A stretch of DNA of 24,218 nucleotides from a virus (lineage: Duplodnaviria; Heunggongvirae; Uroviricota; Caudoviricetes). Location: IMG/VR virus record IMGVR_UViG_2537562231_000018. One strand, given 5' to 3'. The position numbers and the translations under genes are program-made. Below the pieces are notes generated by a model. That model saw only the letters and a list, made by a program, of their open reading frames with translations, did no database searches and was not told the origin of the DNA. Shown in pieces: positions 7,428 to 22,943 of the stretch. Numbering within the stretch: position 1 is the first letter of the stretch; the number at the start of each line of letters is the position of its first letter.

Positions 7428-8248
7428 CTATCTGGTCACCTTTTTCAGTTGTTGTTCTGCCCATGCTTCTTCAATATCAAACTGCACCACCAGCGTATCG
7501 TAAAAACGTTTAACTGTTTTTTTCCATGTATCAAGAGATATGGCATCGGTTACATTACATATGGCATTAAATGCCTCCGTTGAAGGTAATCTTTCATAGC
7601 CACGACCACCACAACGCTGGCAGTCTCTGATAACAGGCATACCACGTTTTACCGACTCTTCACGATGAATGGCAACACCGCGCCCACGACAATCTTTACA
7701 GGCGGTGGAAACCTCCCCCTTCCCTCCACACTCCGGACAGGCAACTTTTACCACCTCCCTGACTTTTTCCATTCCTCCCAGTAAGACTGATACACGCCTT
7801 TTGTACACTTTGCCCATACTGGCGGCTTACCATCCGGATACTGAATCTTGTTTGTAAAAATCTCGCTTTCAATAAATTTTTTTCCGTGACAGCATGGGCA
7901 CTGTTTTTTGCTCGCCGCGCTCCGGGCATAATCCTCAAACGCATACGAAGCCATAATGCGCATCACTACCGGTTTTATTTCTGCCGGAAGTTTTCTTAAC
8001 GCTGCCACGCGATCACACCGACTGAGAGCGTATTCTGCCAGCAGTTCTGTTGCCCGCTCCCTGTCATTCATACTGATGCCCATTTTCCCAAGGAACGCAG
8101 AAAACCCCATCTCAGCCCGATTCTGTGTCATGCCCTGCGCTGCCATCACATCAGTGATACTCAGCGCATCTTTTGACGTTGAGGCCGATGCATCCGTCAG
8201 ACCCGGTGATTTTGGGGAATAGTATTTTGGTAAATCTTCCAGTTTCAT
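7428..8248 (-). CDS. Q: antitermination protein Q (lambda Q / QuuQ family), split into two overlapping frames by an apparent 1-bp frameshift
   Basis: ORF 7748..8248 (MKLEDLPKYYSPKSP..TDVMAAQGM..SYAFEDYARSAA..CPCCHGKK) aligns with the lambda Q N-terminus; ORF 7428..7817 (..CKDCRGRGVAIHREESVKRGMPVIRDCQRCGGRGYERLP..TWKKTVKRFYDTLVVQ..VTR) aligns with the lambda Q zinc finger and C-terminus. The frames differ by -1 and would join across the A5 run at about 7766..7770. Confidence 0.75.
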
Positions 8249-10121: not shown

Positions 10122-10277
10122 TTACTTCTCAGATTCGTAAGCTGTGAAGACAGCGACCTCCGTCTGGCCGGTTCGGATTCGTACCTCGCAGAGGTCTTTC
10201 CTCGTTACCAGTACCGTTACAACGACGGTAATACAGATGACGATCAGGGCGATTAGCATCGCCTTTTGCTGCTTCAT
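10122..10277 (-). CDS. hok: Hok/Gef-family type I toxin (HokD/RelF-like)
   Basis: MKQQKAMLIALIVICITVVVTVLVTRKDLCEVRIRTGQTEVAVFTAYESEK, 51 aa, near-identical in pattern to E. coli Hok/Gef proteins. The tracker ORF is extended upstream in frame to 10334. Confidence 0.85.
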   Translation of the reverse strand: MKQQKAMLIALIVICITVVVTVLVTRKDLCEVRIRTGQTEVAVFTAYESEK

Positions 10278-10325
10278 AGCCTGCTGCTCCTTGCCTTTCG
10301 GCGCGTAAGAGGCTAATCTAAGTGT

Positions 10326-10398
10326 GCAAGTCATAGATATGGCCTCAGATTAATGTTAAGCGTCCTGCAAGACGCATAATGTTAACTGGGGCTTTTCT
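10326..10398 (+). ncRNA. sok: candidate Sok antisense RNA (position and promoter inferred)
   Basis: Plus-strand promoter TTGCCT (10291..10296) -17 bp- TAATCT (10314..10319) faces away from hok and overlaps the hok leader; downstream hairpin GCGTCCTGCAAGACGC and a T-rich stretch. Exact ends not determinable by eye. Confidence 0.3.
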
Positions 10399-10527
10399 CT
10401 GTCTGCCTTACGTCGGCATGCCCGAGGCAGACAGCCTCAAGCACCCGCAGCAATTCTACTTAACTCTCGCTTTACCGCAAACCGTTTTACCCGATATGGG
10501 AATGCCCATATCGCAATGAATTCAGTT

Positions 10528-18553: not shown

Positions 18554-18972
18554 ATGGACAAATATGAATTTAGACGACAGCAACTCATCAAAATTCGTGA
18601 TGAGAAATGCGATGGTAAAGCGGTTAACGTGGCCAGAAAGATCGGGCGCGAGCCTTCTTATGTATCAAGAATGTTGTACCCAGAGGGGAAAAAGGGAAAA
18701 AACGGATCGCTGATGATATGGTGGAGATTATCGAAGAGTCCTTTGGGTTACCCCGGGGATGGATGGATGGTATCGTTTCATCATCAACGAACACAGCCTC
18801 CAGTTATGAAACAAGGGTTCTAACGCCACGACAACGTATTTTTTTAGATCTCTTAGACGAACTGCCAGAAAGTGAAGCGGATAACTTATTAAAAACTCTT
18901 GAAGAGAAAAAACAGTATTACAATATGATCTACGAAGAAATCCGTAAAAAGAAAGCACAAAACGCATCATAG
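18554..18972 (+). CDS. RacR/cI-type repressor candidate, split by an apparent frameshift at the A6 run 18697..18702
   Basis: ORF 18554..18823 carries an N-terminal HTH (GKAVNVARKIGREPSYVSRML); ORF 18718..18972 continues in the +2 frame. One extra A in the A6 run would join them into a roughly 140-aa protein. The ATG has no SD and sits 7 nt after a TATTAT -10, so the mRNA would be leaderless like lambda cI. Confidence 0.5.
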
Positions 18973-19553: not shown

Positions 19554-19772
19554 ATGCAGAAACGAGAACCCGTCATCATCGCGCCAGACTATACCGATGA
19601 TGAACTTTATGAGTGGATGCGCCAGAAAATTAATGCAGCGCAGGATCTGAAATGGGCTAATGAAGCCAGGGCTAAGCAGGCTGAAAATCTGTCCGCTCTG
19701 GAGCAGGATATCACCAGGCTGGAAAAAGCAGCGGCATTAAGCATTGCCAGAATGATTACATACCCGCGTTAA
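19554..19772 (+). CDS. hypothetical small protein (72 aa)
   Basis: GAGGAA SD upstream of the ATG; charged helical composition; same size class as Kil-type proteins in Rac but not verified. Confidence 0.4.
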   Translation: MQKREPVIIAPDYTDDELYEWMRQKINAAQDLKWANEARAKQAENLSALEQDITRLEKAAALSIARMITYPR

Positions 19773-20174
19773 TAGCTAACCAACGAAGCTAAGGTTGGTA
19801 ATTAAGGAGTTCTCCACGGGTGAGGTGGAGTGCGTACGCCGGACACGGGTGAGCATCCGGCACTGACAGTTTACTGAAAGGATATTTCCATGAAAAGTCA
19901 GACCATAACGCGAAAGCGCACGGCGAGGTAGCTGGTTCATAGATAACCTGTCGTTAAATTTTCGTCGACCGTGCGCTTCCGGTTGTGGCACTCCGCGAAA
20001 TGGCGCGGCGGTAAGTATGGCGGGGTTATTCCTTCCCCGTTGAGGACATCGGGTTGTCAGGTTGACCATACGCTTAAGTGACAACCCCGCTGCAACGCCC
20101 TCTGTTATCAATTTTCTGGTGACGTTTGGCGGTATCAGTTTTACTCCGTGGCTGCTCTGCCGCCCTTTTTAAAG

Positions 20175-20322
20175 TGAATTTTGTGATGCGGTGAATGCGG
20201 CTCAGCGCACGCGGAACAGTTAAAACCAAAAACAGTGTTATGGGTGGATTCTCTGTATCCGGCGTTAATTGTTAACTGGTTAACGTCACCTGGAGGCACC
20301 AGGCACCGCATCACAAAATTCA
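20175..20322. repeat. 19-bp perfect inverted repeat (TGAATTTTGTGATGCGGTG at 20175..20193; CACCGCATCACAAAATTCA at 20304..20322) enclosing 110 bp
   Basis: Exact reverse-complement arms read directly from the sequence; right arm ends 17 nt upstream of the ATG at 20340; enclosed segment contains two GTTAAC palindromes. Confidence 0.6.
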
Positions 20323-20339
20323 TTGTTGAGGACGCGATA

Positions 20340-20441
20340 ATGGAAACGTTATTACCAAACGTTAATACGTCTGAAGGTTGTTTTGAAATTGGTGTCACTA
20401 TCAGTAACCCTGTATTTACTGAAGATGCCATTAACAAGAGA
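20340..20441 (+). pseudogene. 5' portion (34 codons) of a small gene interrupted by IS66 copy 2; 3' portion at 22982..23068
   Basis: METLLPNVNTSEGCFEIGVTISNPVFTEDAINKR then the IS; joining across the IS and one copy of the target duplication restores a 62-codon ORF whose TGA overlaps the ATG of the downstream gene at 23065. Confidence 0.45.
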
Positions 20442-20526
20442 GTAAGCGTAAACTGACCGCCGTATGTAGCCATCAGACGAGAATTGGTAACTTAGACGCC
20501 CATCTGATATAGACGGACATCTAAGT

Positions 20527-20952
20527 ATGGAATTACAGGACTGGCGAAAAGAACCTCGTAAAAACTATTCGAATGAATTCAAACTTCGTATGGTGGAACT
20601 GGCATCACAACCTGGAGCTTGTGTTGCACAGATTGCACGTGAAAATGGCGTCAATGATAATGTTATTTTCAAATGGCTCAGGCTCTGGCAGAACGAAGGG
20701 CGTGTTTCGCGGCGTCTTCCGGTAACGACCTCTTCTGACACTGGCGTTGAATTATTACCTGTAGAAATAACGCCGGATGAGCAGAAAGAACCTGTGGCGG
20801 CCATTGCGCCGTCTTTATCCACTTCCACTCAGACCAGAGTCAGTGCCAGTTCCTGCAAGGTGGAATTCCGTCACGGTAACATGACGCTGGAAAATCCATC
20901 GCCAGAGCTGCTCACAGTGTTGATCCGTGAACTGACCGGGAGGGGAAGATGA
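20527..20952 (+). CDS. IS66-family accessory protein (orfA), copy 2
   Basis: 141 aa; EFKLRMVELASQPGACVAQIARENGVNDNVIFKWLRLW. Confidence 0.85.
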   Translation: MELQDWRKEPRKNYSNEFKLRMVELASQPGACVAQIARENGVNDNVIFKWLRLWQNEGRVSRRLPVTTSSDTGVELLPVEITPDEQKEPVAAIAPSLSTSTQTRVSASSCKVEFRHGNMTLENPSPELLTVLIRELTGRGR

Positions 20953-21299
20953 TCTCACTCCCATCAGGTACCCGTATCTGGCTCGTTGCCGGCGTTACCG
21001 ATATGCGTAAATCCTTCAACGGACTGGGAGAACAGGTACAACATGTGCTGAATGATAATCCCTTCTCCGGTCACCTGTTTATCTTCCGTGGCCGACGGGG
21101 TGACACCGTCAAAATTCTTTGGGCTGATGCTGATGGTCTGTGCCTGTTCACCAAACGCCTGGAGGAAGGCCAGTTTATCTGGCCTGCGGTACGTGACGGC
21201 AAGGTATCCATTACCCGCTCGCAACTGGCAATGCTCCTCGATAAGCTGGACTGGCGTCAGCCAAAAACTTCCAGCCGTAACTCACTGACAATGTTGTAA
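20949..21299 (+). CDS. IS66-family orfB (TnpB), copy 2
   Basis: 116 aa; RIWLVAGVTDMRKSFNGLGEQV..HLFIFRGRRGDTVKILWADADGLCLFTKRLE. Confidence 0.85.
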   Translation: MISLPSGTRIWLVAGVTDMRKSFNGLGEQVQHVLNDNPFSGHLFIFRGRRGDTVKILWADADGLCLFTKRLEEGQFIWPAVRDGKVSITRSQLAMLLDKLDWRQPKTSSRNSLTML

Positions 21300-21329: not shown

Positions 21330-22943
21330 ATGAGTCAGAAATACCTCATTCGCATCGCAGAGCTGGAAAGGTTGCTCTCTGAGCAGGCTGAAGCCCTCCG
21401 TCAGAAAGACCAGCAACTGAGTCTGGTTGAAGAGACGGAAGCCTTCCTGCGCTCTGCACTGACACGTGCCGAAGAAAAGATCGAAGAAGATGAACGGGAA
21501 ATAGAACATCTGCGGGCTCAGATAGAAAAACTGCGCCGGATGCTGTTCGGTACCCGTTCTGAAAAACTGCGTCGTGAAGTTGAACTGGCTGAGGCTCTGC
21601 TGAAACAACGTGAACAGGACAGCGATCGTTAACAGTGGGCGGGAAGACGATCCTCAGGTTCCCCGCCAGTTGCGACAGTCGCGCCATCGTCGTCCGTTAC
21701 CGGCACACCTTCCCCGTGAAATACACCGCCTGGAGCCAGAAGAAAGCTGTTGCCCGGAGTGTGGCGGTGAGCTGGATTATCTGGGGGAAGTCAGCGCAGA
21801 ACAACTGGAACTGGTGAGCAGCGCCCTAAAAGTGATCCGCACAGAACGGGTAAAAAAAGCCTGTACAAAATGTGACTGCATCGTTGAAGCACCGGCACCA
21901 TCCCGCCCGATAGAGCGTGGTATCGCGGGCCCGGATTACTTGCCCGCGTGTTAACGGGAAAATACTGCGAACATCTGCCACTGTATCGTCAGAGTGAAAT
22001 CTTTGCCCGCCAGGGTGTCGAACTGAGCCGGGCCTTACTCTCCAACTGGGTTGACGCGTGCTGCCAGTTAATGACACCGGTGAATGATGCCCTGTACCGT
22101 TATGTAATGAACACCCGCAAGGTTCACACTGATGACACACCGGTAAAGGTACTGGCACCGGGTCAGAAAAAGGCGAAAACAGGGCGTATCTGGACGTATG
22201 TCCGGGATGATCGCAATGTGGGTTCGTCATCTCCTCCAGCGGTCTGGTTCGCGTACTCGCCGAACCGGCAGGGGAAACACCCGGAGCAACACCTCCGCCC
22301 CTTCCGGGGTATCCTGCAGGCGGATGCGTTCACAGGTTACGACAGGTTGTTCAGTGCAGAACGTGAAGGTGGTGCACTGACAGAAGTTGCGTGCTGGGCC
22401 CATGCCCGGCGAAAAATCCACGATGTATACATCAGCAGCAAAAGTGCGACGGCAGAAGAAGCCCTGAAGCGAATCAGTGAACTGTACGCCATCGAGGATG
22501 AAATACGGGGATTACCGGAGTCAGAGCGTCTTGCCGTCAGGCAGCAGCGAAGCAAAGTGTTACTGACGTCGCTGCATGAATGGATGGTGGAGAAGAATGG
22601 TACGCTGTCGAAAAAATCCAGACTGGGCGAAGCGTTCAGCTATGTACTGAATCAGTGGGATGCCCTCTGTTATTACAGTGATGACGGTCTGGCGGAGGCG
22701 GATAATAATGCTGCGGAAAGAGCGCTTCGTGCAGTCTGTCTAGGAAAGAAAAACTTTATGTTCTTTGGCAGCGATCACGGCGGCGAGCGTGGAGCACTGT
22801 TGTACGGGCTGATCGGCACCTGCCGTCTGAACGGTATCGATCCGGAAGCGTATCTGCGCCATATCCTGAGCGTACTGCCGGAATGGCCTTCCAACCGAGT
22901 TGACGAACTCCTGCCATGGAACGTAGTACTCACCAATAAATAA
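21330..22943 (+). pseudogene. IS66-family transposase (orfC) broken into three ORFs by two frameshifts
   Basis: ORFs 21330..21632, 21610..21954 and 21948..22943 together align along the copy-1 TnpC; the second break coincides with a G-run (GGCCCGGATTAC where copy 1 has the equivalent of GGCCCGGGATTAC). Confidence 0.8.

Follow-up and report, generated by a model that had tools for sequence, protein, structure and literature searches.

A Qin-like dicBF intercistronic region: DicF, its probable processing signals and an RNA domain related to STnc100

The stretch between positions 19,773 and 20,339 of a 24,218-nt viral DNA (IMG/VR record IMGVR_UViG_2537562231_000018, the whole of which we call the window) is, with a probability of about 0.88, the intercistronic RNA between ydfC, dicF and dicB in a Qin-like lambdoid prophage and so belongs to the dicBF operon, the transcript of which is cut by ribonucleases. 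The original prediction, made from the sequence alone, had described a structured non-coding stretch there. That observation is correct, and the locus is already known and well studied, DicF being a cell-division-inhibiting small RNA (sRNA). The only fresh point here is that the 110 nt enclosed by a long inverted repeat between dicF and dicB are a divergent, unannotated, pseudoknotted relative of the STnc100 RNA, closed by that repeat.

The DicF locus and its neighbours

The assignment comes first from alignment. Over 892 nt, positions 19554-20441 are 98% identical to ydfC-dicF-dicB of the Escherichia coli K-12 Qin prophage, with the same gene order, the same spacing (341 nt from the ydfC stop to dicF and 174 nt from the dicF end to the dicB start), the same terminator, and stems at the positions predicted from the 190-, 72- and 53-nt DicF species. 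The Rfam DicF model (RF00039) matches 20114-20165 on the + strand over its full length (positions 1-52 of 52) with 75.0 bits against a gathering score of 48 (E 3.8e-15), and the sRNA differs from K-12 dicF (b1574) at one base, in the hairpin. It lies where DicF is expected in a lambdoid early operon, between ydfC (19554-19772) and the N-terminal part of dicB (20340-20441). The hairpin and T-run that had been noticed near 20128-20170 are its terminator, a G+C-rich stem at 20148-20163 followed by CCTTTTT and reaching 20170, which was found by a terminator scan and is the terminal hairpin of the Rfam alignment; of the several functions first suggested for the region, that of an sRNA locus is thus the one borne out. 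Of 5426 complete E. coli genomes, 4719 carry the locus sequence (median copy number, two), and the matching genomes have the flanks annotated as ydfC and dicB and the spacer itself mostly without annotation.

The flanking genes, which had been missed, are ydfC and a dicB truncated by an insertion sequence (IS). The K-12 alignment ends inside dicB, at 20441, where an IS66-family insertion cuts the gene after codon 34, unlike the intact ydfC-dicF-dicB pattern of K-12. Because the insertion breaks dicB, any cis role on dicB is locally moot, and of the two only DicF, the sequence of which is intact, can still function in this window. The window differs from K-12 in two further respects: its inverted repeat is perfect, whereas that of K-12 contains two G·U pairs, and it has an ATG that creates a 13-codon open reading frame (ORF) where K-12 has CTG. 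That the stretch itself holds no credible protein gene was confirmed: the minus-strand ORF at 19776-20111 (111 aa) has no Pfam match, and stop codons or frameshifts interrupt it in 9 of 17 variants, and the ORF at 20141-20473, also on the minus strand, has no Pfam match and extends into the IS. The features of the locus are as follows.

19554-19772, + strand: ydfC (72 aa), upstream gene of the dicBF operon; equal to K-12 ydfC except for two adjacent bases, and so annotated in matching genomes.
19890-19931, + strand: 13-codon ORF MKSQTITRKRTAR plus stop (codons 19890-19928, stop 19929-19931), not conserved as coding.
19904-19987, + strand: long imperfect stem-loop of 22 bp (19904-19928 with 19963-19987), the apical loop of which varies; from consensus and minimum free energy (MFE) folds.
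20020-20090, + strand: stable hairpin within the 190-nt precursor (outer arms 20020-20034 and 20076-20090), from folds; nearly invariant in relatives.
20051-20059 and 20079-20087, + strand: 9-bp core of that hairpin, GGGTTGTCA and TGACAACCC.
20114-20166, + strand: DicF sRNA (53 nt) with its Rho-independent terminator (T-run 20166-20170); Rfam RF00039.
20166-20193, + strand: 5′ strand of the helix P0 (perfect arm 20175-20193; predicted extension 20166-20174, including the terminator U-run), from the fold and relatives.
About 20185, + strand: inferred RNase III cut for 72-nt DicF, in the 5′ strand of P0, from the published length.
20178-20319, + strand: STnc100-like structured leader core (Rfam STnc100, 37.7 bits; our own model R1, 103 bits).
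20304-20332, + strand: 3′ strand of P0 (perfect arm 20304-20322; predicted extension covers the dicB Shine-Dalgarno (SD) sequence GAGGA, 20328-20332), from the fold and relatives.
20340-20441, + strand: dicB, first 34 codons only, cut off by the insertion; Pfam DicB and NCBIfam CellDivInhibDicB, residues 1-34 of 62-position profiles.
20442 to at least 22943, + strand: IS66-family element in dicB after codon 34, beginning GTAAGCG; NCBIfam matches to IS66 TnpA, TnpB and transposase.
20527-20952, 20949-21299 and 21948-22943, + strand: tnpA, tnpB and transposase genes of that element (NCBIfam).

Processing stems and the inverted repeat

Both halves of the region fold more stably than dinucleotide shuffles (z = -3.5 for 19773-20170 and z = -5.4 for 20166-20345), which bears out its description as structured. 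In K-12, the operon has been shown to give a single transcript that starts at dicBp upstream of ydfA, no internal promoter having been found; transcription terminates after DicF, the 3′-end of which is the intrinsic terminator, and the RNA is processed to a 190-nt DicF species with a 5′-end made by RNase III and to 53-nt DicF with a 5′-end made by RNase E (PMC10448788). The full-length read-through mRNA is cut by RNase III to yield an alternative 72-nt DicF (PMC5069750; PMC9438474), and comparison of Δrnc with wild type gave an rnc-dependent coverage difference, marked as known, at position 1649470 in the dicF-dicB spacer (PMC5371410 Table S1), which corresponds to about 20202 in the window. 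Simple arithmetic places the 3′-end of the 72-nt species at 20185 (20114+72-1), position 11 of the 19-nt left arm of the inverted repeat, and the start of the 190-nt species at 19977 (20166-190+1), in the 3′ strand of the long upstream stem. Both long helices thus sit where the published K-12 ends must fall. Since the 72-nt end falls in its left arm, the inverted repeat can be read as the double-stranded substrate of the RNase III cut that makes 72-nt DicF, and the K-12 72-nt species together with the rnc-dependent spacer signal suggests that RNase III-dependent ends lie inside this helix. Likewise, the stem at 19904-19987 is the probable RNase III site that would give the 190-nt precursor its 5′-end at about 19977.

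Between ydfC and dicF, the 13-codon ORF does exist with the good SD sequence ascribed to it (AAGGA, 8 nt 5′ of the start), although the coordinates first given were one base off; its 3′ half forms the 5′ strand of the long stem. The hairpin reported around 20050-20088 is likewise present, with 9 bp rather than 10. This combination had raised the idea of a leader-peptide attenuator, in which translation of the ORF would govern which hairpins form further along and thereby how much transcription reaches dicF and dicB, and an ATG with a plausibly spaced SD sequence followed by several hairpins and a terminator does have that appearance. The start is not conserved, however, being ATG in 3 of 13 related loci and CTG in the other 10, including K-12, so the ORF is no conserved leader peptide. 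It also contains no run of regulatory codons, and it overlaps the stem whose cleavage by RNase III explains the 190-nt species; moreover, the segment holding the 3′-end of the ORF and the stem is deleted in the homologous viral contig L023. We therefore regard an attenuator as highly improbable. In the L023 deletion (homologue of 19916-20000), the segment lost lay between direct repeats CGCGAAAGCGCACGGCG and CGCGAAATGGCGCGGCG, which correspond to 19909-19925 and 19994-20010 of the window, and with it went the presumed upstream RNase III stem, DicF being kept.

Downstream lies the perfect 19-nt inverted repeat TGAATTTTGTGATGCGGTG / CACCGCATCACAAAATTCA at 20175-20193 and 20304-20322. Exactly as first described, its arms are 110 nt apart, and it stops 17 nt short of the next gene (ATG at 20340). 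Its chance expectation is about 6e-7 (about 1.6e5 position pairs in the 564-nt stretch × 4^-19). The MFE fold stretches the helix to about 28 bp, 20166-20193 with 20304-20332, so that the terminator U-run pairs with the dicB SD sequence; with 19 perfect bp extended in this way, P0 has the approximately two helical turns of nearly uninterrupted double-stranded RNA that mark an RNase III site. Relative to the window, K-12 carries 20189 C>T and 20307 C>T, one change in each arm, which are not partners of one another; each turns a G-C pair into G·U on the + transcript, whereas in RNA from the opposite strand, or in a DNA palindrome, the result would be an A·C mismatch. Relatives supplied 18 distinct arm pairs, in which the helix is held at 20-30 bp. 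Compensatory double changes occur among them: in L048, for instance, U-A has become G-C, and L054 shows both A-U to G-C and U-A to C-G. Because arm changes keep the pairing of the + strand, through G·U pairs and compensatory doubles, the repeat is read as acting as an RNA helix, not as a DNA element.

The same substitutions bear on the proposals that the 110-bp segment works as DNA through its terminal inverted repeats, whether as an invertible switch, as an element resembling a miniature inverted-repeat transposable element (MITE), or as a pair of operators. Perfect 19-bp terminal repeats are what such an element would have, and Rac, P7, D6 and a plasmid do have copies of the segment that are not accompanied by dicF and dicB. 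Against inversion, a synthetic query for the junction that inversion would create, with the 3′ half of DicF running into the inner segment in reverse orientation, found it in none of about 4630 carrier E. coli genomes (partial matches were explained by the palindromic arms), so that only one orientation is seen, and no recombinase is adjacent, the neighbours being ydfC, dicB and the IS66-family element. The flanks TTTTTAAAG / TTGTTGAGG form no target-site duplication, and every copy stands at the same place, 17-25 nt 5′ of an ORF in a phage early operon; we rejected a MITE on the grounds of this synteny, the missing target duplication and the RNA-type substitutions. An operator pair would preserve DNA symmetry, which the arm changes do not, favouring pairing on one strand only. 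Finally, the interior contains covarying RNA helices and a pseudoknot, and in P7 and D6, where the leader precedes tciA, the closing stem is merely 8-9 bp. A role as a DNA element is in our judgement barely credible.

If the K-12 cuts map onto these stems as proposed, the processing of the transcript can be sketched as follows. One long mRNA would start at a repressor-controlled early promoter 5′ of ydfA and then be cut by ribonucleases. RNase III would cleave the stem 19904-19928 / 19963-19987 to make the 5′-end of the 190-nt precursor, and RNase E would cleave an AU-rich site just 5′ of 20114 to make that of 53-nt DicF. The DicF terminator, with its T-run at 20166-20170, would halt most transcripts. 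In those that read through, the RNA would fold into the 19- to approximately 28-bp helix between 20166-20193 and 20304-20332, and RNase III would cut P0 at about 20185 in the 5′ strand and, given the usual 2-nt stagger of the enzyme, at about 20313/20314 in the 3′ strand. Three products are predicted: DicF in its 72-nt form, the structured RNA cut out from between the two sites (about 128 nt), and a dicB mRNA whose short leader begins about 26 nt 5′ of the AUG. As the helix reaches the SD sequence, it may limit the access of ribosomes to dicB until it is cut or melted. The arrangement resembles the RNase III intercistronic sites of phage T7 early mRNAs and the lambda N leader, in which cleavage of a long helix in a polycistronic early transcript parts functional RNAs from one another and leaves the downstream mRNA with a 5′-end near its ribosome-binding site. 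It differs from these in that the helix closes a conserved 110-nt pseudoknotted domain instead of a simple internal loop, and in that one of the products, a regulatory sRNA, carries a lengthened 3′ tail.

The enclosed STnc100-like domain

The downstream helix and the domain it encloses are conserved as RNA structure. At a permissive threshold, the Rfam STnc100 model (RF02076) aligns over its full length (1-206) with 20163-20372, with an E value of 1.5e-6. Many relatives were gathered by scanning viral contigs for a motif and genomes for a pattern. In a joint alignment of 26 canonical and 8 dicB-type copies (A2), which supplies the covariation check across homologues that the original prediction had called for, 95.2% of cells are paired, compared with 35-44% when partners are slid, and the covariation score is 0.518 against 0.03-0.13; none of 500 shuffles reached the observed values. 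The helices that covary are a common closing stem P0, P1, the b hairpin and P4, so that the enclosed domain shares its structure with STnc100. A second alignment (A4), mostly of dicB-type copies from Escherichia, Shigella, Citrobacter, Enterobacter, Lelliottia, Klebsiella, Pantoea and Arsenophonus, gave 97.5% paired cells against 25-47% when slid, double changes at 19 of 24 pairs and no match among 500 shuffles, figures that are somewhat flattered by the fitting of this alignment to a model. The parts of the core are the following.

20197-20212, + strand: P1, from covariation and pseudoknot tests, as are the next two lines.
20217-20223 and 20272-20278, + strand: pseudoknot strands a and a′.
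20263-20268 and 20280-20285, + strand: strands b and b′ of the b hairpin.
20286-20290, + strand: conserved UCACC, from covariation.
20289-20303, + strand: P4 hairpin with loop AGGCA, from covariation.

An H-type pseudoknot, which is absent from the Rfam STnc100 model, joins the loop of the b hairpin to the segment just 3′ of P1, CAGUUAA at 20217-20223 pairing with UUAACUG at 20272-20278. Its strands vary by lineage (AAACUGAC/GUCAGUUU, ACAGUCA/UGACUGU and GGUUAU/AUAACC), and the duplex energy is -7.9 kcal/mol for strands taken from the same sequence versus -5.3 for strands combined across sequences, a difference that none of 5000 permutations equalled. Besides this pseudoknot, the domain has in common with STnc100 the closing stem (…GGUG/CACC…), the junction AAU, the P1 and b hairpins, and an invariant 3′ part, UCACC-CCNGG-AGGCA-CCNGG-CACC. 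It differs in P1, which reads GCGGC…GCACGC here and CCCCC…GGGG in STnc100, in the length of the closing stem (19-30 bp as opposed to 7-9 bp), and in what follows, an SD sequence and ORF here and an intrinsic terminator in STnc100. The 3′ part at 20286-20303 is invariant in all family members, UCACC-(U/G)GGAGGCACC, and an SD-like GGAGG within it spans the stem and loop of P4. Its UCACCU stretch is identical to part of the 3′ tail of 16S rRNA.

Two observations concern the same domain. The first 14 nt of DicF (20114-20127), its 5′ single-stranded part, are complementary to the leader segment AACGUCACCUGGAG (20282-20295), with 9 perfect pairs followed, beyond a U·U mismatch, by another 4. A 9-mer match is at chance level in 1 kb, and this target is partly family-invariant, but DicF could in this way base-pair with the leader of dicB, either in cis or in trans. 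In addition, the window contains a canonical STnc100 copy on its minus strand at 6487-6659 (Rfam, 100.8 bits; our own model, 101 bits at 6515-6638), between a Q antiterminator gene (7428-7817, minus strand) and a DUF1737/SASA sialate esterase gene (4499-6349, minus strand), which is the usual position of STnc100 and PasD; the window thus holds both forms of the fold.

STnc100 (EcOnc27) and its relative PasD are prophage sRNAs encoded between Q or stx2B and a sialate esterase gene, and both EcOnc27 and PasD have been reported to be Hfq associated. The domain between the arms might likewise be a separate, trans-acting, Hfq-dependent sRNA instead of a cis-acting leader or processing module, a reading for which the common architecture speaks, as does the fact that RNase III cuts in P0 would free an RNA of about 128 nt. 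The genomic context separates the two forms. An intrinsic terminator follows within 110 nt in 58 of 81 canonical copies, which fits the detection of EcOnc27 and PasD as sRNAs, but in 0 of 31 dicB-type copies, 28 of which run straight into an SD sequence and an ORF starting 32-44 nt after the conserved motif. Their products are DicB, KilR, a TerB/TciA-like protein (in P7 and D6) and two further proteins. In this subfamily the domain is accordingly read as a leader to early phage genes that are small and for the most part toxic, namely dicB, kilR and tciA. Nor did a scan of the + strand find a promoter-like site, in keeping with the failure to find an internal one in K-12 (PMC10448788). We consider a free-standing sRNA unlikely.

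A further alternative is a cis-acting antiterminator like put of HK022, an RNA that makes polymerase resistant to downstream terminators. Phage operons of this kind are long, many copies of STnc100 proper precede terminators, and a highly conserved fold with invariant unpaired bases is what one would expect of an RNA that binds a macromolecule. But HK022 gave no match with Rfam at the permissive threshold or with model R1, leaving the two without detectable similarity in these searches; in the dicBF operon the element lies downstream of the DicF terminator and so could not help polymerase to read through it; and transcripts of STnc100 proper appear to end at the next terminator, since EcOnc27 and PasD are detected as sRNAs. 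An antiterminator therefore seems very unlikely. Two other candidates were rejected. An analogy to c4-icd of P1/P7, suggested by the P7 and D6 matches, fails because those matches lie in the ban operon 5′ of tciA/terB and Rfam C4 has no match in the window, and ARAGORN calls no tRNA-like element in the window or in L004.

What the domain does is a matter on which we can offer a tentative proposal, one we hold with well under even confidence: that it is a distinct STnc100/PasD subfamily which temperate phages of Enterobacterales use as a cassette immediately 5′ of small toxic early genes (dicB, kilR, tciA and others), usually after a stable small RNA (DicF, KilS or a tRNA), and that it acts in cis instead of being a mere spacer for cleavage, with the closing helix coupling what happens at the 3′-end of the sRNA to the 5′-end, the stability and the ribosome access of the toxin mRNA, and with the invariant unpaired bases (UCACC and the GGAGG loop) binding the 30S subunit, Hfq or a nuclease. 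In the literature we covered, which may be incomplete, no link between the dicF-dicB or kilS-kilR spacers and STnc100 was found; DicF and dicB are both absent from Zhu et al. 2026, and the structure of the spacer is not a topic of Ragunathan et al. 2023.

Several points weigh against parts of our interpretation. The upstream stem is nearly without sequence variation, its structure being given by thermodynamics alone, and the ydfC-dicF half as a whole varies too little for covariation, with double changes at 2 of 89 predicted pairs. The STnc100 match, at 37.7 bits, lies below the gathering threshold of 47. Pairing of P0 with the SD sequence consists of weak A-U and G·U pairs and differs in detail between the dicB and kilR leaders. 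The cut positions derive from RNA lengths given in later papers and may be a few nucleotides off, and processing in the strain that carries this window is presumed by extension from the K-12 copy.

Related modules and implications

The arrangement recurs in the Rac prophage of K-12, where kilS (an annotated 98-nt sRNA with a DicF-like terminator), a leader scoring 86 bits, and kilR follow one another, and where a stem corresponding to the one 5′ of dicF has the annotated 5′-end of KilS in its 3′ strand. As at dicF-dicB, an STnc100-like leader with a long closing helix precedes, by about 20 nt, a small gene for an FtsZ-directed toxin (b4833 and b1352 being kilS and kilR); the differences are in the seed region of the sRNA, in a one-base bulge in the Rac helix, and in the ORF, which encodes KilR. 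A second rnc-dependent position, 1418510, has been listed at kilR-sieB, beside the Rac module (PMC5371410 Table S1). The module of stem, sRNA, pseudoknotted leader and small division-inhibitor gene is thus common to Qin-type and Rac-type prophages.

2756-3003 of L128 (NC_000913.3 Rac), minus strand: kilS-leader-kilR, the same module as dicF-leader-dicB; also in L002 and L003.

Other relatives fill the position upstream of the leader differently. L004 (3214-3288; 4412-4600) has a tRNA-like gene in the slot held elsewhere by dicF or kilS, which matches Rfam tRNA with 44 bits, is annotated tRNA-OTHER and is not called by ARAGORN; isrK and the C4 antisense RNA lie further downstream. In phage D6 (L006), a tRNA-Ser stands just 5′ of the leader, and two more weak matches to the family model, of 37 and 29 bits at 877-990 and 3672-3800, suggest several diverged copies per genome, comparable to the 2-3 copies within 1 kb in some viral contigs (L014 and L039).

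Elsewhere in the window, the repressor DicA is matched only weakly and only in its C-terminal part, at 18718-18972 on the + strand (25 bits, the cut-off being 101), so that the immunity region 5′ of this dicBF operon may have diverged or been damaged. On the minus strand, 10272-10446 encodes an antitoxin RNA of the hok/sok type (Rfam sok, 114.8 bits), as near relBE-hokD in Qin-like prophages. The transposase region of the IS66-family element consists of three consecutive ORFs (21330-21632, 21610-21954 and 21948-22943), which suggests frameshifts.

The main result of this analysis is a clean-up. The flagged stretch is the DicF locus familiar from textbooks, and what looked odd in it can be put down to the known signals for RNase III, RNase E and termination by which DicF is made, which removes the ideas of an attenuator and of an invertible switch. 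Beyond this, K-12 has in two of its spacers, dicF-dicB and kilS-kilR, a conserved domain with a pseudoknot that is related to STnc100/EcOnc27/PasD, RNAs that are common in Shiga-toxin phages and for which we found no function in the literature covered. Because the K-12 spacers carry the fold and are easy to test, they provide a tractable system for asking what the fold does. The arrangement suggests that the toxic division inhibitors DicB and KilR are under post-transcriptional control, linked to the small RNA encoded just upstream.

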